Part shown: positions 12,501 through 28,256 of the stretch, piece by piece
Layout of the letters: each line of letters opens with the position of its first letter
Numbering within the stretch: position 1 is the stretch's first letter
Assembly (NCBI RefSeq): GCF_000146505.1
Contig: NC_017448.1
Span: forward strand, 1,590,001 to 1,622,000
DNA from: Fibrobacter succinogenes subsp. succinogenes S85
Lineage (GTDB): Bacteria > Fibrobacterota > Fibrobacteria > Fibrobacterales > Fibrobacteraceae
Length of the DNA stretch: 32,000 nucleotides
Direction of reading: 5' to 3'
Position numbers and translations under genes: made by a program
Notes under the pieces: model-generated
Told to the model about the DNA's origin: nothing
The model's input: only the letters and a program-made list of their open reading frames with translations
Databases searched by the model: none

Positions 12501-12539
12501 TTCTGCAATTTGAGCGTTTTTATTGTCGGATTGACAAAA

Positions 12540-14315: not shown

Positions 14316-14618
14316 ATGTTCAATGCATCACTTTCATGGATCAAAAGCAAACAAGTCTTCCTGAAAATTCAGGCGGGCACGGGAGACAATTTGCAGCAAG
14401 AAGACATCCAAAAAGGATTTGTCGATTATTGTCTTTGGTCTACTTTCAAGCCGGAAAATATAGACATAGACGGGGAACTTGATATGGAAAGCATCGACAG
14501 CGGAATGGTCCTGTTCAGGGAAAACTGCACCCCCGGAGAGGCGCTGGAATCGAGCTGCCGGCAAGCCTTCGGCACCGACTTCGACAAGGACGATGTTATG
14601 GTACTGATGCTGAAATGA
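14316..14618 (+). CDS. hypothetical protein (100 aa)
   Basis: Only an ORF with protein-like acidic composition. No recognisable motif. Confidence 0.35.
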   Translation: MFNASLSWIKSKQVFLKIQAGTGDNLQQEDIQKGFVDYCLWSTFKPENIDIDGELDMESIDSGMVLFRENCTPGEALESSCRQAFGTDFDKDDVMVLMLK

Positions 14619-14655
14619 CACCTTTCCCGAATAAGGAAATAGAAATCCAAAAATG

Positions 14656-14973
14656 TTATCGGGTTTGTAAAAGCAATCTTTTTACTTTTGTGGTGAATTC
14701 TTCAAATGAAATATTTTTCCATTGATGATGATAGTTGCTTACCGCTTCGGAAACCGGACGTTTATTGTAGCCCTCTCGCCATTCATAGAAAACATCAAAT
14801 TCATCTCGGCGTTGTTTGAGATATTGATTGTCAGGACCGCCAAGTTTGACGGAAATATCTTTAAACGCTCTAGTGAATGTTTCATACCCTAAAGCGGATT
14901 TCGCCTTTTCATTAAACTTCGCAAAATAGTACGCAACAAAAGATTTGTGTTCATTGATTTCTTCTTGAGTCAT
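14656..14973 (-). CDS. hypothetical protein (105 aa), resembles the small helical N-terminal module seen on some HNH/McrA-type restriction proteins
   Basis: YYFAKFN...ALGYETFTRAFKDISVKLGG...YLKQRRDEFD. The resemblance is from memory of that module and is not verified. Confidence 0.5.
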   Translation of the reverse strand: MTQEEINEHKSFVAYYFAKFNEKAKSALGYETFTRAFKDISVKLGGPDNQYLKQRRDEFDVFYEWREGYNKRPVSEAVSNYHHQWKNISFEEFTTKVKRLLLQTR

Positions 14974-15152
14974 ATAAATTCCTTTTTATGGATAAACTGT
15001 TATCTTCTAATTGTCATAACCACGCCACGTAGTGCACAATATAAAAATATCCTCCCCCTCGCTTAGGAACTCTGCCCCTAAAACCTCGCTTGACCGCAGA
15101 CAACCATTAGAGTATTTTAAACAAAGTCAAACATTCTCCGGAGACCCGCCAA

Positions 15153-15614
15153 ATGCAAGGTAAACCGTCACACTACTTCGTCATCCGCTCGCCGTACGTC
15201 CAGCTAGTGCTTACCGGCGTAAAGACATTTGAATGGAGGACAAACGCAAAAATGTTTGCGAACAAGCGCCTCGCCGTCGCAGTCTCCAAATCTCGCGCCC
15301 ATGAAGACGACCTGCAAAACGACATCGCCAAGTGGGAAAAACTGTGGAGCAAATTCCTGAAGAAAGCGACCGCAAAAGACCGCGAAACCGCGCTCGCAAA
15401 ACTCAAGAGAAACCGCGCCAAGGCCGAAAAGCTGTTCGACAAGACAAACGGATGCGGCATGATTATCGGCGAAATCGTGACGGGCGACGTCGCCACCTAC
15501 GAAGGACTCCTGGGCGTTCCCGTACTGGAATTCAAACTCTGGCCGGAATCCGAATGGATGGAATCTCCCGGCGGCCTCGGCGTACGACACATGCCAGAGA
15601 GGACAGGGGAATAA
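15153..15614 (+). CDS. ASCH (PUA-like) domain protein with a charged helical insertion
   Basis: IRSPYVQLVLTGVKTFEWRTN fits the ASCH opening (xxGxKTxExR). An insert of about 55 aa rich in Lys/Glu/Ala (HEDDLQNDIAKWEKLW...RAKAEKLFDK) comes before the distal beta strands (GMIIGEIVTGDV). Confidence 0.55.
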   Translation: MQGKPSHYFVIRSPYVQLVLTGVKTFEWRTNAKMFANKRLAVAVSKSRAHEDDLQNDIAKWEKLWSKFLKKATAKDRETALAKLKRNRAKAEKLFDKTNGCGMIIGEIVTGDVATYEGLLGVPVLEFKLWPESEWMESPGGLGVRHMPERTGE

Positions 15615-15786
15615 AACTCTTTCCTATTTCGGCAAATGTGAGTTATCTCAAAGATGATCAAATCGTTTGTATAGCCATTGGTTTACATCCTAATTGAAAC
15701 CCAAGACGAAAATGGCGCAGCCGGAGTTTTACTTGTACTCTTTAAAGAGATGTTTTAGCTTAATTATTATAATTCTAGAAATGTTC

Positions 15787-15815
15787 TTGACAATTACATT
15801 GACTATTTATATATT
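15787..15815 (+). promoter_or_regulatory. sigma70-like promoter of the methyltransferase gene, near-leaderless
   Basis: TTGACA (15787-92), 17-nt spacer, TATATT (15810-15), and ATG only 8 nt further (15824). The -35 region contains a direct repeat TTGACAAT / TTGACTAT. Confidence 0.4.
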
Positions 15816-15823
15816 ATACACAT

Positions 15824-17080
15824 ATGAGCAGTAAGATAAATTTAGTAGAAGACCAAATAAGAAAGTCGGACAAGATTCCTAAGATTGTCGCACTAAGCTT
15901 TTTTTCTGGCGCCATGGGACTTGACATAGGCTTATCGAAAGCAGGTATAAAGGTTTTGCTTGCATCCGAAATAGAACCAAATGCAAGACGAACAATTCTA
16001 ACGAATGAGCCGAACATTGGTCTCATAGGTGATATAAGCGATTATTCTGCCGAAGACATCAGAAAATACGCTAATTTACCTAAGAATCAAGAAATTGATG
16101 TAATGGTAGGAGGCCCTCCATGCCAAGCGTTTTCCACCGCAGGTAAGAGAGAGAGTTTTTCCGATGCACGCGGAAACGTGTTCCTCACCTACATTGACCG
16201 TATCCTTGAATTACGCCCTAAGTACGCAGTAATTGAAAATGTTCGAGGCCTCTTATCCGCCGCTTACAACCCGCCTAAAAAAGAAAGTTTCGGATTCGCA
16301 ATGCCAACTCCTAAAAATGAAAAGGGGGGAGCATTAGCTTATATCATAAAAAAATTGGAAGATGGTGGATATGGGGTTTCATTCAATTTATACAATGCTG
16401 CAAATTATGGAGCACCCCAAAAAAGAGAACGAATAGTCATTATTTGTTCGCGAGACGGTTCAAAAGCGCCGTATTTGACCCCGACTCATTCGGAAACGGG
16501 CTTGTTCAATTTACCCAAATGGCGAACCGTTTCCGAAGTGTTGAACGACCTAGATGAAAATGTCCAGGAATATTCAAAATTCTCCGAAAAAAGACTAAAG
16601 TTCTTCAGAATGCTGAAGGCCGGCCAGTATTGGAAAGACCTCCCCGAAGAAGCCCAAAAAGAAGCAATGGGTTCAAAACTGCAACTTGGCGGTGGAAAGA
16701 CAGGGTTCTTTAGAAGATTGGCTTGGGATTTGCCTTCTCCTACGTTGGTAACAGACCCGACAATGCCGGCTACAGATTTATGCCATCCTGATAAGGATCG
16801 TCCTTTGAGTGTTCAAGAGTACAAACGAATTCAAGAATTTCCTGACGATTGGAAGCTTTGTGGTGACATCAAAGCCAAATACAAACAGGTTGGAAATGCC
16901 GTGCCAGTTAGCTTAGGCATGGCAATAGGTAAGCACATTGTGAAATTGCTTGAAGGAAAAAAAGTCAAACAAATTGAAGGATTCCCGTATTCTCGCTATG
17001 TAAACACGGATGTAGACACATTCAAAAAACTGGTAATGTCTAAGAAAGAAATAGTAGGTCAGTTAGAATTGAATTTCTGA
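15824..17080 (+). CDS. DNA (cytosine-5)-methyltransferase
   Basis: All diagnostic motifs are present: I FFSGAMGLDIG, IV GGPPCQAFS, VI ENVRGL, VIII QKRERIVII, X GNAVPVSL. Confidence 0.95.
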   Translation: MSSKINLVEDQIRKSDKIPKIVALSFFSGAMGLDIGLSKAGIKVLLASEIEPNARRTILTNEPNIGLIGDISDYSAEDIRKYANLPKNQEIDVMVGGPPCQAFSTAGKRESFSDARGNVFLTYIDRILELRPKYAVIENVRGLLSAAYNPPKKESFGFAMPTPKNEKGGALAYIIKKLEDGGYGVSFNLYNAANYGAPQKRERIVIICSRDGSKAPYLTPTHSETGLFNLPKWRTVSEVLNDLDENVQEYSKFSEKRLKFFRMLKAGQYWKDLPEEAQKEAMGSKLQLGGGKTGFFRRLAWDLPSPTLVTDPTMPATDLCHPDKDRPLSVQEYKRIQEFPDDWKLCGDIKAKYKQVGNAVPVSLGMAIGKHIVKLLEGKKVKQIEGFPYSRYVNTDVDTFKKLVMSKKEIVGQLELNF

Positions 17081-17151
17081 TTATTACCATAAAGAGTCAT
17101 AGTAATCGTCCATAGAATTGTAGTGAGATTTGAAATCGCGAACCAAGTCGT

Positions 17152-18021
17152 TTATTTTTTCTCTATTTCTTTTACTATGCCTGAATCATGCAAAACAGCA
17201 TCTGCTGCATTGCGTATGTTTTTTGAGAGTGTTGAATGATATTGTCCTTTGCCAGATATGTGCTCCCACAATTCTCTTCCCACAAAAGTTTTTTTCTTCC
17301 AATCTTTGACATAAGTTTCTAGCAATTTAGAAGTGACGGTCGCTGCGTTTTTCTTGCCGTAGGTAATGCCAATATACGCTTTATTGCCTTTTTTTTCAAC
17401 GCTGGATAGTTCTTCATCATAATGCTTAATCTGCCCCTTATCTAAATCGTTGAATCCACTTTTTATTTCAAAGAATGTCTTTTCTCCATCTTTATCTATC
17501 ACTAAATCGAACTTAGTTTTTTTGCCTTCGTTATAGTTCTTGCCATCATATATATGTTCATTTGAATATAAAAGCAGGTCTTGGACAAGAAAGCCCATGG
17601 ATGTCACGATACTTCTGGAAACAGCTTGATATGTATAAAATTTGATAAAATCTTTTGGATTGTCAAATTTCAATGCATAACATAATAAGGGATTTGTATT
17701 TAGATCATTTATTGTAATTTCTTTAATCTTTTCCAGCTGTTTTGCTATAAATTTTTTTGTAAAAAGCTGTATAAAGTTTTCTTCTATTGTGCAATCATTA
17801 TTTATTTCTTTTTGCAGTTCTTCTATAGCTTTTATTTCCTTTTGTGTTAATTTTTTCCCGTTTGGGAGGGGGCTAATTTCGTTCACAGACGCTTGTTTAA
17901 ATTTTTCTAGCGAAGAATATTGGGACTTGATTATTTCCAGTTTTTCTTTGAAAGAACGACTCGAACTCGTCATATGAATTAGACATCCTTTTTTTATGAA
18001 TTCAGATACAGAGGCCGCCAT
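17152..18021 (-). CDS. PD-(D/E)xK nuclease-like protein, candidate restriction endonuclease (second of two)
   Basis: FDLVIDKDGEKTFFEIKSG gives a D...E-x-K catalytic signature. It is AT-rich like its neighbours and convergent with the methyltransferase. An alternative start lies at 17973 (MTSSSR). Confidence 0.55.
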   Translation of the reverse strand: MAASVSEFIKKGCLIHMTSSSRSFKEKLEIIKSQYSSLEKFKQASVNEISPLPNGKKLTQKEIKAIEELQKEINNDCTIEENFIQLFTKKFIAKQLEKIKEITINDLNTNPLLCYALKFDNPKDFIKFYTYQAVSRSIVTSMGFLVQDLLLYSNEHIYDGKNYNEGKKTKFDLVIDKDGEKTFFEIKSGFNDLDKGQIKHYDEELSSVEKKGNKAYIGITYGKKNAATVTSKLLETYVKDWKKKTFVGRELWEHISGKGQYHSTLSKNIRNAADAVLHDSGIVKEIEKK

Positions 18022-18106
18022 TTTTCTTTAATCTACGATGCAAAAAAATGTTTTTTTATTTAACGTATCAAGACACGCGTTTCCTATAATCAATTGTAAA
18101 AGGGAT

Positions 18107-18811
18107 TTATGTTCTATAATTAAGTATTTTCTGGATAGCTTCGCATTCAGCTAAATCCACGTATAAACACTTTGGATTCATTATAACAACAGCTCGTGCA
18201 AACTGAATAAATTCTTCCTCACTGAGTTTGTCACTTGCTGGTATGCCAAGCATTGTATTGAGAGCCCCCCATTCTGTTTGCCCCGTCCTTGAGCTAAGAC
18301 GATACCATTTTTGAATGGTTGTGCCTGCTCGTATTTTATCGCTGGAGCTGTTTTCTGTATTGTCTTTGTTTTTAATCTGAATCAGGTCGCCGTTTTTATT
18401 GCACAAGTCAACAGCTTTGATGCAGCTGCCCCAGCAAGTGGCCCATCCATATTTTAGTACTTTCGTATGGATATATTCCTCGAGAATCAAACCGATTATA
18501 TTTTCGGCTCCCATTGAAAGCCTGTGGCCAAAACGAATAAGAGCAATGTCATTAGGGGTAAAAGATTTTATTCGTGCTCCAATAAGATTGTCTATCAGTT
18601 TATCCGGTACCGTAGTCATTTTTCCAGATATTCGTTTTGATGGCCTATGGTTGTAGGCATTGAAGAATTTGTTTATGAACGATTCAACATCTGCTTGACT
18701 TGCGTTTGAATTTTGTTGTAACCAAACAGGAGTTACAATTTTGAATCCGGATTCTTCCGTTTCCTCTGAATAATATTGATTTGCAAGTTCTATTATTTCT
18801 GATGTGTTCAT
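18107..18811 (-). CDS. candidate type II restriction endonuclease, translationally coupled to the controller protein
   Basis: Its start overlaps the C-gene stop as ATGA (18808-18811). AVDLCNKNGDLIQIKNK is a PD-(D/E)xK-like D...x-I-K segment. Size (234 aa) is typical of a type IIP REase. Confidence 0.55.
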   Translation of the reverse strand: MNTSEIIELANQYYSEETEESGFKIVTPVWLQQNSNASQADVESFINKFFNAYNHRPSKRISGKMTTVPDKLIDNLIGARIKSFTPNDIALIRFGHRLSMGAENIIGLILEEYIHTKVLKYGWATCWGSCIKAVDLCNKNGDLIQIKNKDNTENSSSDKIRAGTTIQKWYRLSSRTGQTEWGALNTMLGIPASDKLSEEEFIQFARAVVIMNPKCLYVDLAECEAIQKILNYRT

Positions 18812-19044
18812 TTTTTTATCTCTCCTACATTAGTAACATTATACAGATCCATTATGTTTATGTTGAGATATTGAATTAGGACTATCGCCTTACGAAAGGA
18901 GATGTTTCTTTCTCCTCTCTCGATCATTCCTATATAGTTTTTATGCATTTCAACAGCATTTCCAAGCTGTTCCTGACTTATGCATTTCTTTTCTCTAGCT
19001 TTCTTAACTAGTAAGCCAAAATTTTTTAGGAAGGGATCGTTCAT
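18808..19044 (-). CDS. XRE-family HTH controller (C) protein of the R-M system
   Basis: 78 aa from ATG 19044. ISQEQLGNAVEMHKNYIGMIERGERNISFRKAIVLIQYL is a lambda-repressor-like HTH. Its position and stop/start overlap with the nuclease gene are typical of C proteins. The track ORF to 19071 starts at TTG. Confidence 0.75.
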   Translation of the reverse strand: MNDPFLKNFGLLVKKAREKKCISQEQLGNAVEMHKNYIGMIERGERNISFRKAIVLIQYLNINIMDLYNVTNVGEIKK

Positions 19045-19051
19045 TTTTTCA

Positions 19052-19079
19052 ATTATATAAATGAAATTCAAAAGAGCAA
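19052..19079 (-). promoter_or_regulatory. sigma70-like promoter of the C-R operon, apparently leaderless
   Basis: On the minus strand: TTGCTC (19079-74), 16-nt spacer, TATAAT (19057-52), then 7 nt (TGAAAAA) before ATG 19044. Confidence 0.4.
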
Positions 19080-19182
19080 CACACTATCCGTTGTTTTTTG
19101 CGTTTTTTGGTATTTTTGTTGCCTAATAGTGCTGTTTTGAGTTATGTTTAGATAGAAGGTTAATAAACAATAGGATCAAATT

Positions 19183-19497
19183 ATGGATTTCAGCACTTTT
19201 GAACGGCTTTACATTCCTTATTGCGAAACAACAAATGTGAGTAGTGGTAAGGCAAGATCTTATTATCTTGCAATTAAATATTTGGCAGAATATCTAAACT
19301 TGCCGAATCTTGGTTACGGGAATGCTTACAAGATTCTCGAAAAAGAAAATGACCTTAGCGAAAGGAATAGCATTTTTTACAGACAGCTACTTCGCCAATG
19401 GGATGATGATGGTCATAGCTCCTATTTAAAAAATGGATTCGTTCAAGCGGCCATCTCTTATTTTAGGAAATTTGCTGCAGATAACAATTTGCTGTAG
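19183..19497 (+). CDS. hypothetical protein (104 aa)
   Basis: ORF with plausible composition. AT-rich island gene. No motif recognised. Confidence 0.45.
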   Translation: MDFSTFERLYIPYCETTNVSSGKARSYYLAIKYLAEYLNLPNLGYGNAYKILEKENDLSERNSIFYRQLLRQWDDDGHSSYLKNGFVQAAISYFRKFAADNNLL

Positions 19498-19536
19498 CAG
19501 ATACCCAGTCTCTATCACTATTTTATAGAACAATAA

Positions 19537-19566
19537 CCCCTATGATTTTTAGCATAGGGGTTATTT
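19537..19566. terminator. bidirectional intrinsic terminator between convergent genes
   Basis: CCCCTATG-ATTTTTAG-CATAGGGG, a perfect 8-bp stem, flanked by AATAA on the left and TTATTT on the right. Confidence 0.7.
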
Positions 19567-19575
19567 AGATTTATC

Positions 19576-20520
19576 TCAAAAAATCTTCCCTTCTATTGAG
19601 CCGGCCCCTGTTGTTTTGCATAATATGATCTTATTCCTGTTTTGGGGCCATTTTTGTATTAAGTGATTGCGATCTAGCCTCTTTTCATCAATAAAAAGAT
19701 TCACACTGTTTTCAAAAGTTAACTCATTATTTTTACGTTGGATGACTGTTTTTTCGTCGATTCTGTCACGCTCATCGTGCAGTTCGAAATTTATTGATGT
19801 AAATCCAATTTGCCAGAAAGCCATATCCAACAATTTCATCTGCGTATATTCTAGGTTCCCTTTTTGGAGTGTTACCCTATAACTTTCTAATTGATCAAAA
19901 TTATTTTTATAAAATTCTATAAGATTGTTCAAGGATGTTTTGTTGTATGTTTTCGTCGTTACTTGTTCATATGCGACACCTTTGGCAAAATACTGATCAT
20001 AGGCGGGAACACATCCCAGAGTTCCTAAAAGGACTTTTGTTATCAGGATTGTCGACAGATCAGATTCTACTTCTTCCTTGTACAATAAATCGGAAACACT
20101 TTTTCGAACATCGGAGTAGTATTCAGTGATTTTTTCTGATAAATCCCATAATGCCAGGTTCAGTTCTGAATTGATAAGTTCTTTACATCCTGCTCCTTGA
20201 AGACGCTTGTCCGAGTTCAAAATCATTTCAACAACTTTGCGATGGATTTTGTTATCTTGTTGCAGGAGGAAGGAGGATCCGCGATACATTCCCCAGCTAG
20301 CAAGATAAAAAGCCAGATGAAGGCAAAGGCGGTCTTTGTCACTCTCTGTTATGGACTTTTTATTTCGAACTTCACAAAAAGCCGAGTAGCAGTGTTCCCA
20401 AGAAAGATATCGACTATTTTCTTTTTTGCAGAATCGCCAATACTCTTCCGTGTTTTTTATGAGTTTTTCTATAAGGTACTGTTTTTTCGGTTTTGTATTT
20501 GCTGTGGGACATGTTTTCAT
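19576..20520 (-). CDS. hypothetical protein (314 aa), distal gene of an uncharacterised operon
   Basis: Long AT-rich ORF 7 nt downstream of the preceding gene. It has the conserved-looking block LCLHLAFYLASWGMYRGSSFLL. No family assigned. Confidence 0.6.
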   Translation of the reverse strand: MKTCPTANTKPKKQYLIEKLIKNTEEYWRFCKKENSRYLSWEHCYSAFCEVRNKKSITESDKDRLCLHLAFYLASWGMYRGSSFLLQQDNKIHRKVVEMILNSDKRLQGAGCKELINSELNLALWDLSEKITEYYSDVRKSVSDLLYKEEVESDLSTILITKVLLGTLGCVPAYDQYFAKGVAYEQVTTKTYNKTSLNNLIEFYKNNFDQLESYRVTLQKGNLEYTQMKLLDMAFWQIGFTSINFELHDERDRIDEKTVIQRKNNELTFENSVNLFIDEKRLDRNHLIQKWPQNRNKIILCKTTGAGSIEGKIF

Positions 20521-20527
20521 ATTTGGG

Positions 20528-21172
20528 TTATATGTTATGTTCAGCCAAGTATTGCAATAATGAGTTCATGTTGCGATCATACCAGTCATTAGTAACAAAG
20601 TAATGTTCATTTCTGATAGAAATATCATCGGCATAATATCTGGATCTGCCATGATTATCATTACGCCCAGCATCAGTTAGCTTTAACACTGGGTAGCGAA
20701 GATTTCCAAATGTACGACGGCAGTATGCAGCGTCTTGTAAATTGGATACCTCTTCGTTAGATAAATTGCCGCTTTTCAAAAGATCATACAGTCTGGTTTT
20801 AACAATAAATCCAGGTCTTAATTCAGCCAAATTCTCATTTACTTGAGCTTGCGCTGGAGCGAGGTTATTGAACCTTCGAATCCTATTTTGTCTTCCTGGA
20901 TTAATCTCTGTCATCTTCCAAAGTTTTACAGCTCGAATAAACAATTCGCTTTCGTCAGCTATATTGTCGGTCAAATTGCAAAGTGGAATCAATATGCTTG
21001 ATTTAAATTCTTCATTTGCGATAATCTTTAGATCAACTTCGCAATTATTTTCGGAAAAAAAGTCTCTTAGATTATTGATATTTGCATTTAATTGGGTTAA
21101 AGTAGTATCTCCAATTCTAGGCGAAATAAATGTTAGTTCTATGGCACTATTTGGGAAAAAGGATTTCGTCAT
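20528..21172 (-). CDS. hypothetical protein; the reading frame stays open upstream to 21280 with no canonical start, so it is probably the C-terminal part of a split gene
   Basis: 214 aa from the first ATG. The same frame reads RRSYKIFAYESAFHENGLNYQDTQKKVIHKFFRNYL upstream of that ATG. Confidence 0.55.
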   Translation of the reverse strand: MTKSFFPNSAIELTFISPRIGDTTLTQLNANINNLRDFFSENNCEVDLKIIANEEFKSSILIPLCNLTDNIADESELFIRAVKLWKMTEINPGRQNRIRRFNNLAPAQAQVNENLAELRPGFIVKTRLYDLLKSGNLSNEEVSNLQDAAYCRRTFGNLRYPVLKLTDAGRNDNHGRSRYYADDISIRNEHYFVTNDWYDRNMNSLLQYLAEHNI

Positions 21173-21225
21173 TAAATAGTTTCTGAAAAATTTATGAATT
21201 ACTTTTTTTTGAGTGTCTTGATAAT

Positions 21226-21534
21226 TTAAACCGTTTTCATGAAAAGCTGATTCATAGGCAAAAATTTTGTACGACCTCCTTCAAACAAAAGACCTAATAA
21301 ATCACATTCGGTGGATTCCAATACGGTTGAAAAGGATTGTGGTCGATTGCCTGATGTAAAACGAAAAACAGAAAAACGTTCATCATCTTGAAAACGATTA
21401 TATAGAGTTTCTAGCTCTGATTCATTATATTGCTGCCAGAATCTAGACACCTTGAAGTTAGTTTGAACAATCTGACAGCCTTTACAATGTCTCAGCCAGG
21501 AATAAAGCATGCTTTCTGCTATTTCTATTTTCAT
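21226..21534 (-). CDS. hypothetical protein (102 aa), probably the N-terminal part of the split gene
   Basis: MKIEIAESMLYSWLRHCKGCQIVQTNFK...ESTECDLLGLLFEGG, after which the frame ends. It overlaps the open upstream extension of the next ORF by about 50 nt. Confidence 0.55.
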   Translation of the reverse strand: MKIEIAESMLYSWLRHCKGCQIVQTNFKVSRFWQQYNESELETLYNRFQDDERFSVFRFTSGNRPQSFSTVLESTECDLLGLLFEGGRTKFLPMNQLFMKTV

Positions 21535-21759
21535 TCTGGATTCCTTTTCAGTTAAACACCTGCAAATTAAAATAAATTATTTCCATACAAAAGTCCAAAG
21601 ATTTTTTTGCGTTAGGGATAGTGACCCCTTGGGGACAAGACTCGCATAGCGAGGCTTGGTTCTAGGAGGCGAGCGGCAAGCGAAAGCGTAGGCGATTGCC
21701 CCTAGAATATAGCCCGACCCGGCCCTTCGGCAAGCTCAGGGACCTGGGCCGGGGAACGC

Positions 21760-21801
21760 CTTGTAAAATTTTCTTGCTTCCATGGCGCAAGCGCCAAATG
21801 C
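21760..21801 (+). repeat. left 42-nt boundary repeat of the cassette array (18-nt core plus palindrome)
   Basis: CTTGTAAAATTTTCTTGCTTCCATGGCGCAAGCGCCAAATGC is 39/42 identical to 26031-26072. It contains the perfect palindrome TGGCGCAAGCGCCA. Confidence 0.85.
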
Positions 21802-21814
21802 TAGGCTCAGTCAT

Positions 21815-21836
21815 AAAAATAAGCAAGCTTATTTTT
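21815..21836. repeat. perfect 10-bp inverted repeat AAAAATAAGC-AA-GCTTATTTTT
   Basis: Read directly from the sequence. It lies in the 59-nt unique spacer between the left boundary repeat and the first leader module, and could act as a bidirectional terminator. Confidence 0.5.
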
Positions 21837-21896
21837 GCGACATTCGCCTTACGCATTTGTGCCAACATTTTCGATATTAGGTACATTAATGCAGCA

Positions 21897-21934
21897 CGTG
21901 ATTCTCTGTCAAATGGAGAATCGCGTCTTTTTTT
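21897..21934 (+). terminator. intrinsic-terminator-like hairpin inside leader copy A
   Basis: CGTGATTCTC-TGTCAAATG-GAGAATCGCG (10-bp stem including one G-U) followed by TCTTTTTTT. Confidence 0.6.
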
Positions 21935-21976
21935 ATTCTGTAATTTCAGAATTAGGGGACGCCTCTAACATCAACC

Positions 21977-21993
21977 GGTCACAAATTGTGACC
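21977..21993. promoter_or_regulatory. palindromic operator-like site GGTCAC-AAATT-GTGACC
   Basis: Perfect 6-bp half-sites lie between the leader hairpin and the SD of the toxin gene. Confidence 0.4.
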
Positions 21994-22017
21994 ACATGGA
22001 GGCAAAAAGCACCTATC

Positions 22018-22338
22018 ATGAATGAAAATATTGACAACTTGTCAAAATTTGATTACATTATAAAAAGATACACGGTCAGAATAACTCATAAGGCTTTAAA
22101 GAACCTTGATAAAATGCCCAAGCCAGAACAGGAAAAGTTCTTCCGTTTGAAAACGGCTTTGGAAACAAGAGGTCCTGAACAGCCCTCGTTTATGAATTAT
22201 TCTAAACTCGGTATGAACATGTATCATTGCCATTTGTCAAGAAAATGGGTTGCATGTTGGAAAAATGAATCGGGAACTTTAACTATAGAGGTCTACTATG
22301 TTGGCAGTCGTGAAAGCGCCCCCTACGCACGGCACTAA
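22018..22338 (+). CDS. RelE/ParE-superfamily toxin
   Basis: 106 aa from ATG 22018. YTVRITHKALKNLDKMPKPEQEKF...L...YSKLGMNMYHCHLSRKWVACW...TIEVYYVGSRESAPY follows the RelE/ParE pattern. The toxin-first order with an XRE antitoxin is HigBA-like. Confidence 0.65.
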   Translation: MNENIDNLSKFDYIIKRYTVRITHKALKNLDKMPKPEQEKFFRLKTALETRGPEQPSFMNYSKLGMNMYHCHLSRKWVACWKNESGTLTIEVYYVGSRESAPYARH

Positions 22339-22714
22339 GAAGCCGGTATCCTTCAAGATCGAAGGAGAACAGATTCCCGACTTCGTTTTGGGGATGCTCA
22401 AGTACATGTTTCCGAAATGTGTCAAGATTTATGAAACGCCGCTCAAAAAACGTCATGATATGGATGAGGAATCGGTTGTGCTCGAAAGTACCGATTGGAA
22501 CAAGAGAATGTCCGCGGAAATGACACCAGGCAAGGCCATCCGTGCCGACCGTGGGCTTCGCGGATGGACGCAGAATGTTCTCGCGCAAAAACTCGGCATC
22601 TCTATACAGAACCTTTCTGCGATGGAACATGACCGTCGTCCGGTATCCAAGAAAATGGCCGCAAAGCTGTCTCAAATTTTCGACGTCCCGCCTGAAACAT
22701 ATTTCAAATTCTGA
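22298..22714 (+). CDS. XRE-family HTH antitoxin with N-terminal extension
   Basis: The C-terminal GKAIRADRGLRGWTQNVLAQKLGISIQNLSAMEHDRRPVS is an HTH_3. It overlaps the toxin by 41 nt, with an alternative ATG at 22394. Confidence 0.7.
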   Translation: MLAVVKAPPTHGTKKPVSFKIEGEQIPDFVLGMLKYMFPKCVKIYETPLKKRHDMDEESVVLESTDWNKRMSAEMTPGKAIRADRGLRGWTQNVLAQKLGISIQNLSAMEHDRRPVSKKMAAKLSQIFDVPPETYFKF

Positions 22715-22727
22715 CTGTAAAATTTTC

Positions 22728-22756
22728 TTGCACCCCTAGCCAACATTTTCGATATT
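22728..22756 (+). promoter_or_regulatory. sigma70-like promoter inside leader copy B
   Basis: TTGCAC, 17-nt spacer, GATATT. The -35 hexamer is formed by the 3' end of the 18-nt core. Confidence 0.35.
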
Positions 22757-22774
22757 AGGTACATTAATGCAGCA

Positions 22775-22811
22775 CGTGATTCTCTGTCAAATGGAGAATC
22801 GCGTCTTTTTT
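22775..22811 (+). terminator. intrinsic-terminator-like hairpin inside leader copy B
   Basis: Same hairpin as copy A, followed by TCTTTTTT. Confidence 0.6.
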
Positions 22812-22853
22812 ATTCTGTAATTTCAGAATTAGGGGACGCCTCTAACATCAACC

Positions 22854-22870
22854 GGCCACAAATCGTGACC
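22854..22870. promoter_or_regulatory. palindromic operator-like site GGCCAC-AAATC-GTGACC
   Basis: Same position as in copy A, with one half-site mismatch. Confidence 0.35.
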
Positions 22871-22883
22871 ACATGGAGGCTAA

Positions 22884-23926
22884 ATGACCAAGAACACAAA
22901 AAATGTGACTGTTGCGCCAGTCAAATCAGAAATGTCCCTGATAGACGAGAACTTGCTCAAATCGCGTATTTATACCATCCGAGGGGCCAAGGTCATGCTT
23001 GATGCCGATTTAGCCGAAATTTATGGGTATAGTACCGGAGCTTTTAACCGGCAAGTCAAGAATAATATTGAGCGTTTTGCGGAGGATTTCCGGTTCCAAT
23101 TGTCCAAAAGGGAAGTTGAAGAATTGCGATGCAAAAATTGCACCGCAAATATCAGCACAATGAACCGCTCCTATCCCTTTGTTTTTACGGAACAAGGTAT
23201 TTACATGCTCATGACCGTGTTGAAAGGCGATTTAGCGATACAACAGAGTATGGCCCTCATTCGTCTTTTTAAGCAGATGAAAGACTATATCGTTGCAGAA
23301 AATCAGCAACTGCTCGGAACTGCGGGAATCGCCCAGATTGCAGCGCAGACTGCTCAAAATACACATGAAATTGCGGTGGTTTCTGCCGAAGTAAAGGAAC
23401 TTTCCGGCGAAGTTCGCGACATTCGGAGTGATTTGGGAAAAATCAATATGGACCTCCAGATGGTCATGGAAAATTTCGTCGATCCATCGACTTACAAGCA
23501 CTTCTTGATTCTGAATGGACAGAAGTTGGAAGCCGATGTCGCCTACGCACAGATTTACGGCATGGCGAAGAAAACGCTGTTGATTGTCGATAACTATGTT
23601 GACATCAAGACGTTGAATTTGCTCAGAAATGCGCACAAAGGCGTTTCCATCTTGATTGCGAGTGACCAATATACCCGCAAACAGACGATATGCTCAACGA
23701 TTTTCGTGCTGCGATGCCGGGCATTTCGATTGACAAAATTTCTGCTGCGCACAAGTTCCACGACCGATACATTCTAATCGATATCAAGACCAAAAGCGAA
23801 AAGCTGTACCATTGCGGGGCTTCTAGTAAGGACGCCGGCAATAAGATTACGACTATTGTTCAACTGGATGACATTGAGGCATACCGGAACATGTTTGAAG
23901 AACTGTACGCCAAGCAGGAAACTTAA
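22884..23926 (+). pseudogene. ORF6N (KilA-N-related) domain protein with PLD-like HxR...D C-terminal domain, interrupted by a frameshift near 23675-23695
   Basis: The N-terminal MLDADLAEIYGYSTGAFNRQVKNNIERFAEDFRFQL is ORF6N. The frame changes after ...VSILIASDQYT. The second frame (open from 23666, ATG at 23690) continues MLNDFRAAMPGISI...FHDRYILID...LYHCGASSKDAGNKITT. The two ORFs overlap, and each alone is a truncated version of the usual protein of about 340 aa. Confidence 0.65.
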
Positions 23927-23945
23927 TTACAAAAGCGAGGTAAAA

Positions 23946-24299
23946 ATGAACTATACATTTACAGAAAAAGAAGTTGAAATGATGTACAACTGGGGAATGT
24001 ACGCTGATGGGGAAAGCGGCTTCAATGAAGAAGAAAAAAAGTTGTACGATAAATTGGAGCGAATATTTACGCCATTACAAAAAGAAAAAAATAATGCGCA
24101 AAAGGTTGTAGAATTTTTCAAAGAAATTAGCAATACATACGAGAACGTAAGTTATTACTGGAGTACTGGGACCTGTATCAAATTTATTGACTATGATAAA
24201 ACACTTTGCTTTGACACTAAAAAAACTAAATACACAGATGTGGTGCTCGAGGTGTCGAAGGTTATAAACAAATTAAAGTTGAAAAAGCGAGAAGATTAA
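23946..24299 (+). CDS. hypothetical protein (117 aa)
   Basis: ATG 23946 is preceded by GAGGTAAAA, 19 nt after the ORF6N-family stop. No motif recognised. Confidence 0.5.
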   Translation: MNYTFTEKEVEMMYNWGMYADGESGFNEEEKKLYDKLERIFTPLQKEKNNAQKVVEFFKEISNTYENVSYYWSTGTCIKFIDYDKTLCFDTKKTKYTDVVLEVSKVINKLKLKKRED

Positions 24300-24361
24300 T
24301 AAATGCCGAAATAGCCACAATCCAGAATGGGAAGTAGGCACATTGCTCTTGTAAAATTTTC

Positions 24362-24390
24362 TTGCACCCCTAGCCAACATTTTCGATATT
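24362..24390 (+). promoter_or_regulatory. sigma70-like promoter inside leader copy C
   Basis: TTGCAC, 17-nt spacer, GATATT, as in copy B. Confidence 0.35.
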
Positions 24391-24408
24391 AGGTACATTA
24401 ATGCAGCA

Positions 24409-24446
24409 CGTGATTTTCTGTCAAATGGAGAATCGCGTCTTTTTTT
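24409..24446 (+). terminator. intrinsic-terminator-like hairpin inside leader copy C
   Basis: CGTGATTTTC-TGTCAAATG-GAGAATCGCG. The single C>T difference from copies A and B converts a C-G pair to U-G, so the stem is retained. Followed by TCTTTTTTT. Confidence 0.6.
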
Positions 24447-24498
24447 ATTCCGTGATTTTGGAATAAGGGGACGCCTTCAACTAATCAAAGGAGGCGCA

Positions 24499-26037
24499 AT
24501 GGCTCTATCTAATATCGACATCGCTACAATTCTTTCAATGGAAGAATCGCAGACTTTTGACCGCAAAAGCATTAATATTGCTCCGCGTGATTTTTCCAAC
24601 CATGTCTGCGCATTCGCCAATGCCGATGGCGGCATTATCGTAGTCGGCATTTCGGACAAGACCAAACGCATAGAAGGCGTTGATTCTCGGGAACGTCAAA
24701 TAAACGAGCTATTACGAGTACCGATGGATTTCTGCCTGCCTACGGTTCCATTCGTTCATGAATTTGTGGATTGTGTAGATTCAAACGGCAAGGCAAACCA
24801 TGTTCTTGTTTTCCATATAGAAGCGAGTCCGCTTGTTCACGAGAACCAAGCGCATGACGCCTATATACGGATTGGAGACAAATCAAAAATTCTTTCTTAC
24901 GAGGACCGCATGACGCTTAGCCTAGACAAAGGATTGCGCTCGTTTGAAGATATTTTGGTTCCAGATTCAAGTTACGACGATATTGATGAAGTTTACCTCA
25001 AGGAGTATCTGCAAATGGTAGGATACTCAAGAAGCCCTCGGGAGTATCTATTGCAAAACAAGAACTTTGCCAAGGAGAAGGCCGGCGAAATACGGCTAAG
25101 CGTTGCAGCTATATTACTATTCGGAAAGAATCCGCAGCAGTTCTTTCCTCGCGCTCGTGTACGCTTTATCCGCTATGAGGGTACCGAGGAAAAATTTGGA
25201 ACTGAGATGAATGTCATCAAGGACGTAATCTTTGAGGGGCGAATTCTTGAACAGATTCGGCAGGCTGTTGCCTATATTCAGACGCAAATCAAGGAACGTA
25301 CGTATTTGACCAAGGGCGGAATTTTTACCACAGAACTTGAGTATCCTGAATTTGTACGTACAGAACTAGTTGTCAATGCGGTAACACATAGGGATTACTC
25401 TATTCGCGGAACAGAAATTCAAATCAAGATGTTCGATGATCACTTGGTTGTCGAGTCACCTGGCAATTTGCCGAGTCAAGTAAAAATTGACAAGATTAGG
25501 AATGCGCATTTTGCACGAAACTCACACATCGCGGAGTACCTAAAGGATTACAAGTATGTTAAGGATTTTGAAGAAGGCGTTGACCGAATGTATCGAGAAA
25601 TGGAGGCGTCAGGTTTACCTGTGCCTGAATACCGTCAGGATTCTTTCATTTTGAAGGTCATTGTCAAAAATTCAGGTTTTGCCCTTCAGAAAACGGGATT
25701 TGAGTCCGAAAAAACGGGATTCGCTCTTCAAAAAACGGGAATTGAATCTGAAAAAACGGGATTTGCTCTCCAAAAAATGGAAATCGCATCTATTGTATTA
25801 AATTCAGGTTTTGGGAAGACAATAAAAGAAAAAATGAAAAAAATCATTGATGAAATAGACGAAAATCAAGTAATTGCAGCAAAGGATATTATGAAAATTT
25901 TAGCGTGCAAGCCAACCGCCGCAACAGAGATGATTAAACGAATGCGCTCGCTAAATCTTTTGAATAAAATAGAAGGAGTAGGACCAGGTCGTTATTCCTT
26001 AAATTTTCTCTCAATAACCACACCGAAGGACTTGTAA
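24499..26037 (+). CDS. AlbA_2 (Schlafen-like) DNA-binding domain protein with HATPase_c_4-like domain and C-terminal wHTH
   Basis: The N-terminal EESQTFDRKS...HVCAFANADGGIIVVGISDK is the AlbA_2 signature. The middle NAVTHRDYSIRGTEIQIKMFDDHLVVESPGNLP is the RecG-like HATPase_c_4 block. Its stop codon TAA lies inside the rightmost 18-nt core. Confidence 0.8.
   Translation: MALSNIDIATILSMEESQTFDRKSINIAPRDFSNHVCAFANADGGIIVVGISDKTKRIEGVDSRERQINELLRVPMDFCLPTVPFVHEFVDCVDSNGKANHVLVFHIEASPLVHENQAHDAYIRIGDKSKILSYEDRMTLSLDKGLRSFEDILVPDSSYDDIDEVYLKEYLQMVGYSRSPREYLLQNKNFAKEKAGEIRLSVAAILLFGKNPQQFFPRARVRFIRYEGTEEKFGTEMNVIKDVIFEGRILEQIRQAVAYIQTQIKERTYLTKGGIFTTELEYPEFVRTELVVNAVTHRDYSIRGTEIQIKMFDDHLVVESPGNLPSQVKIDKIRNAHFARNSHIAEYLKDYKYVKDFEEGVDRMYREMEASGLPVPEYRQDSFILKVIVKNSGFALQKTGFESEKTGFALQKTGIESEKTGFALQKMEIASIVLNSGFGKTIKEKMKKIIDEIDENQVIAAKDIMKILACKPTAATEMIKRMRSLNLLNKIEGVGPGRYSLNFLSITTPKDL
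25675..25782 (+). repeat. 42-nt in-frame tandem repeat, 2.5 copies (GFALQKTGxESEKT)
   Basis: GFALQKTGFESEKT / GFALQKTGIESEKT / GFALQKME, read from the translation and the DNA. Confidence 0.8.
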
Positions 26038-26072
26038 AATTTTCTTGCTCCCGTGGCGCAAGCGCAAAATGC
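26031..26072 (+). repeat. right 42-nt boundary repeat of the cassette array
   Basis: CTTGTAAAATTTTCTTGCTCCCGTGGCGCAAGCGCAAAATGC is 39/42 identical to 21760-21801. Confidence 0.85.
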
Positions 26073-26209
26073 AGATGTACGTAAACTACTATGATCGTTA
26101 TGTAAAGCAGGATTTCAAAAAACCGACTATCGGCATTTTACTTTGCAAAGAGAAGAAGGATACCCTTGTGAAGTTGACGTTACCCGAAAAAGCAAATATT
26201 TATGCCCCC
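26069..26209 (+). pseudogene. 3' fragment of a YhcG/DUF1016-type PD-(D/E)xK nuclease gene
   Basis: KMQMYVNYYDRYVKQDFKKPTIGILLCKEKKDTLVKLTLPEKANIYA matches the C-terminal block of the YhcG family (GKMxFYxxxxD...PTIGIxLC..K....V.Y.L). No N-terminal 250 aa is present upstream, and the frame then runs into nhaC out of frame. Confidence 0.5.
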
Positions 26210-26229
26210 ACTTTTCTATCTTTCACGTC

Positions 26230-27573
26230 ATGCAAAACGAAAACATTCAAGAAAAGATCAAGGGCAACCCGATTGCCCTTTTGCCTATCGCCGTGTTCCT
26301 GGTACTTTATCTGGGTCTCGGCATCACGTTTGAATATATCCTCAAAATCCCGATGGGATTTTACAACATCCCGATTGTCGCGGCGTTCCTGGTGGCGATT
26401 TTCGTGGCTTGCGTACAGAACCGCAAGCTGAATTTTGACCACAAGATGAATGTGATGGCAGGTGCACTTGGCGACCGCAATATTTTCTTGATGATCCTGA
26501 TTTTCCTTTGCGCGGGCATTTTCGCGGGGATTCTCGGGCGTTCAAGCGCTTCGGCGGCAGCATACTTGCTCTTGGATTTCATTCCGGCGCAGTTTGCGGT
26601 GGTGGTGCTGTTCGTTGTCGCGGCGTTTGTCTCTACGGCGATGGGTACGTCTGTTGGCACAATTGCAGTGGTCTCCCCGATTGCGGTCGAAGTCGCACAG
26701 ATGGCGGGCTTTGGCGTTCCATTCTGCGTAGCGACGGTGATTGGCGGCGCGATGTTTGGCGACAACTTGAGCTTTATTTCGGATACGACGATTGCGGCTA
26801 CGTCTACGCAGGGCTGCAAGATGAAGGATAAGTTCCGTGTGAACTTTCTGGTGGCAGCTCCGGCGGCACTTCTCGCGATTATCATCATCACGGCAATTTC
26901 CTTTGTGACCAAAGCAAATACGGTTGCAGAAAATTCCTACAATCTCGTACAACTTATTCCTTACGTTCTCGTGTTGGCGCTCGCGCTCACGGGCATCAAC
27001 GTTTTTGCAGTTTTGCTCATCGGCATTGTCGCAGCCTCCATCATTATGGTGGGTTCTGGCACGCTTAATATGATTGGCCTTTTGCAGAACATCGGGAACG
27101 GCATTTCGGGAATGTACGAGACAATTCTCGTGGCGGTTCTAGTGAGCGCCTTGTGCGGGCTCATCCGCATTCACGGCGGTTTTGCGGCTCTGTTAGACTT
27201 TATCCATAAAGTGTTCAAGGGGCACCGCAGCGGTCAAGTGGGCGTTGGCCTCTTGGTGAGCGCACTCGACATTGCTACAGCAAACAACACGGTCGCCATC
27301 GTGATGGCAGGCCCGATTGCAAAGCAGATGGGCGACGAATACAGAATCTCGCCGAAAAAGACAGCTTCGCTTCTGGACATATTCAGTTGCGTGGTGCAAG
27401 GCATTTTGCCTTACGGCGCACAGATGCTCGTGGCACTTGCAGCCATTTCAACGGCTATCCCGAACGCAAACATCAGCGCATTCGACCTCATTCCCTACAT
27501 GTTCTATCCATTCCTGTTACTTGTCAGCGTACTCATATTCATTGCAATTTCTCCACGCAAGAACAAACAATAA
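26230..27573 (+). CDS. nhaC: Na+/H+ antiporter NhaC family protein
   Basis: 447 aa from ATG 26230 (MQNENIQEKIKGNPIALLPIAVFL). It is polytopic, with a GDNLSFISDTTIAAT block typical of NhaC-type transporters. Confidence 0.8.
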   Translation: MQNENIQEKIKGNPIALLPIAVFLVLYLGLGITFEYILKIPMGFYNIPIVAAFLVAIFVACVQNRKLNFDHKMNVMAGALGDRNIFLMILIFLCAGIFAGILGRSSASAAAYLLLDFIPAQFAVVVLFVVAAFVSTAMGTSVGTIAVVSPIAVEVAQMAGFGVPFCVATVIGGAMFGDNLSFISDTTIAATSTQGCKMKDKFRVNFLVAAPAALLAIIIITAISFVTKANTVAENSYNLVQLIPYVLVLALALTGINVFAVLLIGIVAASIIMVGSGTLNMIGLLQNIGNGISGMYETILVAVLVSALCGLIRIHGGFAALLDFIHKVFKGHRSGQVGVGLLVSALDIATANNTVAIVMAGPIAKQMGDEYRISPKKTASLLDIFSCVVQGILPYGAQMLVALAAISTAIPNANISAFDLIPYMFYPFLLLVSVLIFIAISPRKNKQ

Positions 27574-27728
27574 ATTCAACAATATTTTGCACTAACGGTT
27601 CCCCGCCTCTGCAGGGATTTTTTTCATATTCCAATTTAGACTGCCCCACAACTACTCCTCATATATGTTACTTTGTAGTTTACAATTGAGTCGGTTAAAC
27701 GTCTCAAAATAAAATTAAGAAGGCAATC

Positions 27729-28172
27729 ATGAAAAGCGTAAAAATTATGGCGATAGCCATGCTAGCGTTGATGGTGACAACATCATTCGCAGCACGAATT
27801 GTACAATCAAAACTAGGCGATATCGAAATCACTAAAACACAAGATGCAAGCGAAGTTGTCTGCACCGCAGAATTCAATGACGAACTGACAATTGTCAAAG
27901 AAGCAGAAACAAAAGTTCTCGTCAAAGGCCAATGCGGGCAAGGTTGGGTTGATAAAGATAAGGTCGTGTATGTGGTGAAAAGACCAGGAGACAAAAGCAT
28001 TACTTTGGATGAACAGGTTCTCGTAGACTGGACCGATAATCCGAGTGCCATAATCGTTTTTGAACACCCCGATATTGATGATGAGGAGGTGAAAATGGAC
28101 CGCGATTTCAAAGAATACCTGACATACACAATCGATCGTGAGCAAACAGAAAGACGAAATGGAGAGAACTGA
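27729..28172 (+). CDS. secreted hypothetical protein (possible SH3-like domain)
   Basis: Signal peptide MKSVKIMAIAMLALMVTTSFA. The segment LTIVKEAETKVLVKGQCGQGWVDKDKV resembles a bacterial SH3. Confidence 0.55.
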   Translation: MKSVKIMAIAMLALMVTTSFAARIVQSKLGDIEITKTQDASEVVCTAEFNDELTIVKEAETKVLVKGQCGQGWVDKDKVVYVVKRPGDKSITLDEQVLVDWTDNPSAIIVFEHPDIDDEEVKMDRDFKEYLTYTIDREQTERRNGEN

Positions 28173-28185
28173 GCTCACGCATCAG

Positions 28186-28212
28186 CGCTGCCCTGCGGGG
28201 CAGCGTTTTTTT
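28186..28212 (+). terminator. intrinsic terminator
   Basis: CGCTGCCC-TGCG-GGGCAGCG, a perfect 8-bp stem, followed by TTTTTTT. Confidence 0.8.
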
Positions 28213-28256
28213 ATAGACATTTTCCGTTTTTGCATTTTTTAACGTAGATTTATAGC

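Follow-up and report, generated by a model that had tools for sequence, protein, structure and literature searches.

Defence islands of bacteria are known hotspots, but outside integrons the swapping of single genes in them is mostly unexplained. In integrons the attC site lies 3' of each gene and the cassettes are mostly promoterless. The pdif modules of Acinetobacter plasmids are small, often toxin-antitoxin, and are bounded by 28-bp sites (XerC arm, 6-bp spacer, XerD arm) of alternating orientation. In the minimal mobile elements of Neisseria, alternative genes are exchanged at one site between conserved flanks, without an element-encoded recombinase. The rAID-1 clusters of Bacteroidales are defined by a XerD-like recombinase at their 5' side, and their cargo consists of orphan immunity genes (Ross et al. 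2019, bioRxiv 10.1101/471110). The DUF1874 motif is found in successive putative 5' untranslated regions with no 5' integrase, and the choice between an RNA and an unusual attC was left open (Weinberg et al. 2017, PMC5737381). Here we describe a gene array in Fibrobacter succinogenes subsp. succinogenes S85, within a stretch of 32,000 nucleotides (contig NC_017448.1, positions 1,590,001 to 1,622,000, hereafter the window, to which coordinates refer unless a related locus is named). The array outwardly resembles an integron or a rAID-1 cluster, but fails the defining tests of integrons, rAID-1 clusters and pdif modules. It is a leader-defined cassette array in a defence island, in which a short repeated core is the upstream edge of a ~150-170-nt module composed of a predicted promoter and a structured 5' leader. 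This covarying leader marks units that vary between strains.

A sequence-only reading of the window had pointed to an 18-nt core repeated four times in direct orientation. The core, CTTGTAAAATTTTCTTGC, was found exactly at 21760, 24348 and 26031, and a fourth time at 22714 with 2 mismatches (or, read as a 17-mer without one T, at 22715); the four copies (4/4) are all direct and on the plus strand, so that this claim was borne out. Recurrence beyond chance was confirmed as well: with as many as 3 mismatches allowed, the expected number of matches in the window is 0.08, and not one of 100 shuffled sequences reached four. Cargo genes do end at the core, as had been noticed, the stop codon TAA of the AlbA_2 gene (26035-26037) lying inside copy 4 and the stop codon TGA of the helix-turn-helix (HTH) gene (22712-22714) directly adjoining copy 2. 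The length of 18 nt, however, did not hold, since three of the copies actually share ~150-170 nt, as far as the next gene's start codon.

Conservation of this longer module was read from an alignment of 18 distinct copies, taken from S85, Fibrobacter metagenome-assembled genomes and rumen metagenome contigs. Four blocks were near-invariant (TGTAAAATTTTCTTGCNCCCCTAGCCA, TAGGTACATTAA, ACGCCTCTAAC and GGAGGC) and the segments between them drift. The 5' end, TGTAAAATTTTCTTGC, is an A/T tract at the place where an UP element would sit. It is followed by a candidate -35 box, T[A/T]G[A/C]C[A/G], a variable spacer of 17 nt and a candidate -10 box, TACATT. Conservation was high at the two boxes and low in the spacer, and the natural -35 variants TAGCCA, TTGCCA, TTGCCG and TTGACG were all found 17 nt from TACATT. 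The conserved blocks fit a -35/-10 promoter, and the module would probably be transcribed from it. Inspection by eye revealed no match to sigma-54 or Bacteroidetes-type promoter motifs.

Downstream of the -10 box, RNAalifold placed three directly abutting hairpins, P1, P2 and P3. P1, with the U-tract behind it, has the form of an intrinsic terminator: the hairpin contains G+C, the U-tract follows directly, and the stem covaries. A terminator scan picked P1 and its T-run three times (21896-21926, 22774-22804 and 24408-24438, each with T6-T7). P2 is formed by the U-tract and AAGGGGAC, which enclose a small apical hairpin. In P3, an anti-Shine-Dalgarno (anti-SD) sequence, GCCUCU(A), pairs around an apical hairpin with the Shine-Dalgarno (SD) sequence (AU)GGAGGC, and the start codon lies 3-14 nt past GGAGGC. 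Paired cells amounted to 97.5% in this structure, versus 48-59% with slid partners, and double (compensatory) changes were found for 12 pairs, versus 3-4 when partners were slid. In 500 shuffles, the observed values were never reached. The helix between the U-tract and AAGGGGAC is replaced by GUUCUUG/CAAGAAC in L131a and by GUUUUUGC/GCAAAAAC in L132 (numbers with L denote related loci). The module is a unit with definite boundaries and a covarying structure.

The RNA fold of the leader gave z = -3.55, with the SD paired, whereas single-stranded DNA folds of the module, on either strand, were not significant (z from -1.5 to +0.6). The abundance of G-U pairs also implies a structure on the sense strand only. 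The earlier statement that the sites are not canonical attC or dif therefore stands, as the module folds as RNA and forms no attC-like single-stranded DNA hairpin. From its form, the leader may both terminate transcription and repress translation. Insulation, attenuation and masking of the SD of potentially toxic cargo are candidate roles for this compact regulatory element. At gathering thresholds, no match to the leader was found in a scan of the window with Rfam 15, and nothing relevant was seen at E<=5 in 21400-26300. A leader peptide starting at the ATG in TTAATGC was considered and rejected, because its frame is lost as the length of the T-run varies. The modules of the window are the following.

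21760-21777, plus strand: core copy 1 (exact match), an A/T tract that forms the left edge of module 1.
21861-22017, plus strand: remainder of module 1, with -10 box TACATT 21882-21887, P1 21896-21926 and T-run, P2, anti-SD, P3 and SD GGAGGC 21998-22003 (nhmmer match 21861-22003, terminator-like match, alignment).
22714-22883, plus strand: module 2, with core 22714-22731, -35 box TAGCCA 22737-22742, -10 box TACATT 22760-22765, P1 22774-22804 and T-run, P2, anti-SD, P3 and SD 22875-22880.
24348-24498, plus strand: module 3, with core 24348-24365, -35 box 24371-24376, -10 box 24394-24399, P1 24408-24438, P2, anti-SD/SD helix and SD 24490-24495.

Module 3 has no apical P3 hairpin, and the same P3 deletion is present in the AlbA_2 leader of L140.

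Related loci were collected with a 27-nt pattern (22 metagenome loci) and by exact look-up of the HTH protein (S85, CP001792.1, and nine other loci). The bare 18-mer is an unspecific probe for this purpose, because its matches listed in the genome collection belong mostly to an unrelated conserved locus of the Streptococcus mitis group; the only true relatives among them are L019, L092, L094, L101 and L115. In ~45 related Fibrobacter loci, the module precedes only four types of genes: ORF6N (PDC-S05), YhcG, AlbA_2/HATPase_c_4 in several divergent forms, and a toxin-like open reading frame (ORF) followed by a HigA-like HTH gene. Diverse restriction-modification and other defence genes are found upstream of the modules. 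The 27-nt pattern had no match in IMG/VR viral contigs, where a looser pattern gave one chance match (L143) unsupported by nhmmer. Literature searches returned no description of a Fibrobacter repeat or integron of this kind.

In S85, the array occupies the right end of a larger region.

14317-26084: strain-variable, lower-GC island (restriction-modification genes, genes of unknown function, cassette array) between conserved flanks.

Segments 12397-14316 (94%) and 26085-28222 (90%) are shared between S85 and L124 and the content between them differs, which places the array at the right end of a strain-variable island. The GC content is 0.32-0.45 inside the island versus ~0.49-0.53 outside. The site adjacent to the antiporter gene nhaC, which a decayed copy of yhcG (the relic) adjoins, has at least five alleles that differ by whole module-led cassettes. 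With M for module, these are M-toxin/HTH-M-relic in the L145 type, M-toxin/HTH-M-AlbA_2-relic in L148, the same with M-ORF6N-orf117 between the toxin/HTH and AlbA_2 cassettes in S85, M-ORF6N-relic in L129 and L142, and M-yhcG-relic in L124. The difference between S85 and L148 is exactly one module-led cassette. The array had been proposed to be made of cassettes, and the presence of the module in many Fibrobacter genomes and metagenome contigs, with varied cargo, number and order, bears this out: the cassette array is real and varies from strain to strain. Module-led units are thus what strains of this major cellulose degrader of the rumen differ by, and with the module sequence as a tag, accessory defence cassettes can be located in genomes of Fibrobacter and in metagenomes of the rumen.

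Over the 5' halves, identity among the three modules of S85 is 93-100%, as it would be after a plain local segmental duplication of one S85 promoter region. Such an origin is nevertheless extremely unlikely, since dozens of contigs of other Fibrobacter genomes and of rumen metagenomes contain the module, which occupies several sites in the chromosome and has varied cargo and order, and since the compensatory changes indicate long-term selection on structure.

Like integrons, the Fibrobacter loci combine tandem, co-oriented cassettes of one or two accessory, toxin-antitoxin or defence genes with a reiterated structured element, in strain-variable number and order. Unlike attC, the Fibrobacter repeat lies 5' of the gene, with promoter-like boxes and an SD, and it is conserved in sequence (80-100%) and not in structure alone. 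It has no R''/R' inverted core pair and folds into three hairpins instead of one long one; the one TCTAAC-like box in the module has no inverted partner. No IntI is adjacent: no Phage_integrase domain was found in the window ORFs, and none recurs beside the module in related loci. Pfam scans of all sizeable window ORFs detected no recombinase or transposase domain, in agreement with the earlier statement that the window encodes no integrase, Xer-like protein or transposase.

Likeness to pdif modules lies in the small size, the short conserved bounding sites and the absence of a linked recombinase, but all four Fibrobacter cores are direct and the 21 contexts show no sequence conservation upstream of the core. 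As in minimal mobile elements, alternative genes occupy one site without a recombinase of their own; here, however, the homology is a short regulatory module repeated inside the array, beyond the flanking core genes. The rAID-1 clusters share with the array the membership of their hosts in the FCB (Fibrobacteres-Chlorobi-Bacteroidetes) group, a co-directional, low-GC accessory array of variable content, and intergenic sequences that are repetitive and 'reminiscent of integrons' (bioRxiv 10.1101/471110). Between the Fibrobacter modules there are five co-directional ORFs and a repeated intergenic sequence, as in these clusters; the GC content of the array (0.40-0.45, with flanks at ~0.49-0.53) is slightly above the 41% cut-off used in Bacteroidales. 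In contrast to rAID-1, no recombinase was found 5' of the array, the cargo is of nuclease, DNA-binding and toxin-antitoxin type, and the repeat is a defined promoter-like segment with a structured leader. The DUF1874 motif also heads consecutive ORFs (motif-ORF-motif-ORF) as a structured element with no integrase at the 5' end (PMC5737381). It is a different motif in a different lineage, and in Fibrobacter the strand-specific G-U pairs and the SD pairing favour an RNA.

We propose, with a rough probability of 0.55, that a portable promoter-leader module heads the cassettes and that these are shuffled by homologous recombination. The module of ~150-170 nt would be a portable expression unit, and module plus gene would behave as a cassette. 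Each cassette would form an insulated transcription unit, with its own promoter and ended by the P1 terminator of the next module, while promoter-proximal termination and SD sequestration would hold cargo expression low. Homologous recombination between modules, and with the flank formed by nhaC and the yhcG relic, would probably gain, lose and reorder cassettes and leave decayed relics at the nhaC end. Modules that are 80-100% identical provide portable homology. This is the simplest shuffling route, and it suffices for whole-cassette differences such as that between S85 and L148. Mosaic modules support it: the AlbA_2 leader of S85 matches its neighbours in the 5' half and the L140 AlbA_2 leader, with the P3 deletion, in the 3' half, and the toxin leaders of L145 and L148 are S85-like with a different -35/spacer segment. 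The imprecise relic junctions at the nhaC end fit a non-enzymatic history.

Several points weigh against this proposal. A scan of the window with the E. coli consensus reported no module promoter, the hexamers being weak by that consensus. The 27 nt of TGTAAAATTTTCTTGCNCCCCTAGCCA are more invariant than an UP element would need to be, which suggests a protein-binding site. P1, placed just past the module's own promoter, would also attenuate the module's own transcript. Mosaicism is thinly supported, with one four-gamete violation among module segment types. Of 21 upstream contexts without homology to one another, all except one have the left junction between TG and TAAAATTTT, and the right junction is similarly tight at the SD/ATG, before at least four unrelated gene families. 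New junctions do not arise by homologous recombination, and illegitimate joins made at random would not be expected to gather within 2-4 nt. The precision at the core that the sequence-only reading had claimed was thus confirmed, and the 21 precise junctions call for a mechanism; if it is enzymatic, it amounts to an integron-like system without attC or IntI.

One such mechanism, which we consider possible though unlikely, is integron-like capture by an unlinked recombinase. The core (TGTAAAATTTT..., perhaps CTTGTAA) would then be the crossover or binding site, and module plus gene would be excised as circles and inserted at the left edge of a resident module; promoter and leader would travel with the cassette, so that expression would be independent of array position. 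All but one of the 21 left junctions are as this would have them. In L122, at the purT locus, a toxin/HTH cassette ending in ...TGACTGTA leaves the module exactly 4 nt into the core, after TGTA. In another context ('class b'), the core is the third CTTGTAA copy, after a perfect palindrome, AACTTGTAAGgattgCTTACAAGTT-CCT-CTTGTAAAAT. The stems drift, whereas the leftmost 27 nt of the module hardly vary, and strains differ by whole cassettes. A boundary variant, TTATGTAAAAT, may resemble the XerD arm of dif over 11 nt. Against such capture, searches for tyrosine and serine recombinases gave none in the window and none that recurs near the module in ~45 loci with 5-10 kb of flanks, the only recombinases near loci being a XerC/D-like gene 5.6 kb off (L122) and a resolvase ~9 kb upstream (L145 and L147). 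Furthermore, fusions at the nhaC end lack precision, falling mid-module or inside genes, no remnant of the core is left in other terminal cassettes, most site copies lack dyad symmetry, and the conservation is RNA-like, without a significant single-stranded DNA fold. The claim of cassette accretion by site-specific recombination survives as to the cassette array, but not as to cores acting as attC- or dif-type recombination sites. The resolvase gene of L145 and L147 (1-461; serine recombinase with Resolvase and HTH_7 domains) lies at the far left of the island, and is absent from S85 and most loci.

It is rather doubtful that the module is both expression signal and recombination site of a hitherto unrecognised gene-capture system of Fibrobacter, in the manner of a mirror-image integron with promoter and leader at the 5' end of the cassette. 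No less conjectural is the enzyme this scheme calls for, a recombinase encoded elsewhere or an RNA-guided enzyme, which would cut between TG(TA) and AAATTTT and so excise and insert defence-gene cassettes. The sequence before core copy 1, GCCGGGGAACGC, is common to S85, L094, L101, L124 and L137, and its short junction with the core recurs in L101, L121, L124 and L137.

The outer core copies had been described as 42-nt repeats that bracket the array. They are indeed alike over 42 nt (39/42), or over 48 nt at 90%, but the palindrome TGGCGCAAGCGCCA reported in both is perfect in copy 1 only, and reads TGGCGCAAGCGCAA in copy 4. As brackets they had to be abandoned: each is the core followed by the first 24 nt of an ~83-nt element, E83, which is found in other modules elsewhere.

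21778-21860, plus strand: E83, an ~83-nt insertion between the core and the -35 box of module 1, resembling a miniature inverted-repeat transposable element (MITE) or a repetitive extragenic palindromic (REP) sequence.
26031-26072, plus strand: core copy 4 and the first 24 nt of E83 (26049-26072), fused to the yhcG relic.

The 42-nt identity is that of a small mobile repeat, not of array ends. E83 consists of the hairpin TGGCGCAAGCGCCA, then CTCAGTCAT, a hairpin at 21810-21841 and GCGACATTCGCCTTACGCATTTGT. It is absent from modules 2 and 3. L145-type strains have an intact copy at the corresponding position of another module, the one that follows the HTH gene. The fusion of copy 4 to the yhcG relic took place at an ATGC microhomology common to both partners, and L148 has the same junction. 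In the proposed history, E83 would be a separate small mobile repeat that was inserted just upstream of the -35 box.

In L094, E83 is split by an insertion sequence (IS) of the IS110 family (DEDD_Tnp_IS110 2.3e-22, Transposase_20 2.2e-21). REP-type repeats are targets of the IS110-family bridge-RNA recombinases IS621 and ISPpu10 (PMC11208160, PMC11208158, bioRxiv 10.64898/2026.03.19.712850). Only E83, and not the array, is comparable to these systems, as a short hairpin-bearing repeat with an IS110 element at a fixed internal position in a related genome. Alignment of 26 IS copies located the termini inside E83 (between CTCGGTCC and TATATTT at one end, directly after GTATGTCAT at the other), with outer arms that vary between copies. 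E83-like repeats are thus either sites preferred by the IS, just as IS621 and ISPpu10 target REP sequences, or variable IS ends. The comparison is limited by the guide: between the non-coding region at the left of the IS and the left junction, bridge-RNA guide matches extended over only 8 nt, GGCTCGGT. No IS110-family recombinase is encoded in the window, which contains only the 83-nt E83 and the 24-nt fragment. The 42-nt extension was first taken for an IS110 end; this was revised, because the IS termini lie inside E83 and E83 is found without the IS in two different modules. A small mobile repeat with its IS110 element can thus mimic array boundaries.

Elements of the same kind were seen at other places. 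A related element of ~73 nt (E73) is present in the U-tract of modules in L145 (10586-10660) and L127 (oriented, ~12111-12186), and another splits the ORF6N gene in L136 (oriented, ~640-745). This ~73-85-nt family has the order hairpin, CTCGGCA/CTCAGTCA, hairpin, GC(T/G)(G/A)C..TCGGCTT, an architecture shared with E83. L173, a unitig of 1351 nt and thus IS-sized, carries an E83-type right arm CGCCTTACGCATTTGT, 28 nt, and an E83-type left arm GCCAAATGCTAGGCTC; this order points to elements in tandem, or to an assembly that wrapped around at a target present more than once.

The presence of small site-specific mobile repeats in this genome (E83, E73, the L136 insertion and the associated IS110 elements) brings up the case of the module itself being a MITE-like mobile promoter of ~170 nt, and the array a series of independent insertions before neighbouring defence genes. 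The module is sharp at both ends, and another shared leader, at 14034-14132 on the minus strand, likewise lies before genes that are unrelated. We hold such insertions to be quite improbable, however. The module has neither terminal inverted repeats nor target-site duplications, the spacing from SD to ATG is functional in every case, and no case was seen of one gene, at one site, that has the module in some genomes and lacks it in others. Variation of the module follows the cargo in part, and the first codons (MAKK.../MTKN...NV) are common to ORF6N and YhcG cargo, so that the homology reaches into the genes.

At its right end, the array is followed by two features.

26069-26206, plus strand: yhcG relic of ~46 codons (MQMYVNYYDRY...ANIYA; Pfam YhcG_C 1.5e-11).
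26230-27573, plus strand: gene for an nhaC-type Na+/H+ antiporter (Pfam Na_H_antiporter), which flanks the hotspot on the right and is conserved.

The relic had been taken for the 3' third of a yhcG-like gene, which it is not: it covers only ~12% of a 382-amino-acid homologue, and the true C-terminus is missing too, the ORF starting at 26045 aligning to positions 90-153 of the 157 of the YhcG_C profile. It is 88% identical in nucleotides to the full-length yhcG of L094. Four differently decayed yhcG relics adjoin nhaC, the other forms being those of L124, L129/L142 and L145, and each lineage has its own internal deletion. Since full-length yhcG cassettes led by the module exist elsewhere, the relic is an eroded terminal cassette and not the insertion target of the array. 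Of the two possibilities put forward earlier, erosion of a yhcG-like gene was thus retained and insertion into it was not.

The position of nhaC beside the array is conserved in L124, L129, L142, L145-L148, L150 and L153. L124 (oriented) has, upstream of its module, a second copy of a fragment from the nhaC 5' end (5146-5352), which is 77% identical to window 26221-26348, as expected from single-crossover (Campbell-type) integration via nhaC homology.

The cargo of the three cassettes is as follows.

22018-22338, plus strand: cassette 1, gene 1, a toxin-like ORF of 106 amino acids, overlapping the HTH gene in a higBA-like order.
22298-22714, plus strand: cassette 1, gene 2, an HTH_3 (HigA-like) protein of 138 amino acids (Pfam HTH_3 5e-11).
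22884-23926, plus strand: cassette 2, gene 1, ORF6N/PDC-S05 (Pfam ORF6N 1.8e-32 for ORF 22884-23777; PADLOC PDC-S05 5.6e-81).
23946-24299, plus strand: cassette 2, gene 2, an ORF of 117 amino acids, annotated in the S85 record.
24499-26037, plus strand: cassette 3, an AlbA_2 (Schlafen-like) and HATPase_c_4 protein of 512 amino acids (Pfam).

Most of the labels given earlier to this cargo were recovered (HTH, ORF6N, AlbA_2/HATPase_c_4 and YhcG_C), RelE was left unconfirmed, and the PLD domain suggested for the ORF6N gene was not detected there. The 106-amino-acid ORF had no match in Pfam, NCBIfam, PADLOC or PDB sequence searches, so that membership in RelE is unconfirmed. It overlaps the antitoxin-type HTH gene downstream of it at 22298-22338. 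The HTH protein scored 2.4e-07 against the HigA model TIGR02607, below the cutoff of that model. The pair is conserved in L122, L126 and L145-L153; for the identical HTH protein, 78 blocks of the collection were listed and 23 contigs examined.

The ORF6N gene of S85 is frameshifted into pieces of 297 and 78 amino acids, whereas L129 and L142 have an intact gene for 358 amino acids (98% nucleotide identity); the split frame is either a pseudogene or an error in the reference sequence. The ORF6N cassette of L129 and L142 lacks the 117-amino-acid ORF, for which no family match was found in Pfam, PADLOC or NCBIfam. The AlbA_2/HATPase_c_4 protein matched the PADLOC model of a protein associated with prokaryotic Argonaute (pAgo) at 4.8e-46. 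Exact look-up of the AlbA_2 protein returned no record; in L148, a 512-amino-acid gene with AlbA_2 and HATPase_c_4 follows the HTH gene. Towards its C-terminus the S85 protein contains an in-frame tandem repeat (25667-25792, period of 21/42 nt) that encodes a reiterated (Q/E)KTGF(A/E)(L/S). Other AlbA_2 cargo has different low-complexity repeats at that place (GGQT, PINP in L094 and L115).

Elsewhere in the window, restriction-modification features were found at 15824-19071 and 852-1445, with a Dcm-type methylase, EcoO109I-like and SinI-like endonucleases and a small HTH controller-like gene in the island. A gene for a Vsr mismatch endonuclease lies 14 kb off, outside the island, and the window also encodes a Fib_succ_major domain protein.

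The second shared leader-like element (14034-14132, minus strand) is ~99 nt long, GC-rich and apparently structured, and is 88-89% identical in L092, L115, L123, L125 and L133. Its candidate promoter in S85 reads TTGACA-17 nt-TATATT (14207-14179, minus strand). In relatives it is found after a canonical TTGACT-17-TATATT and before unrelated genes (a second yhcG type, an ORF of 107 amino acids), and in S85 and L124 it faces a 164-amino-acid gene (13404-13898).

Directly upstream of the first core lies a GC-rich, hairpin-rich stretch of ~150 nt (21606-21759); neither this stretch nor the 14034-14132 element had a match in Rfam. The ends of the stretch (GCGTTAGGGATAGTGACCCC, ATATAGCCCGACCCG, GCCGGGGAACGC) are conserved in L094, and its centre is different there.

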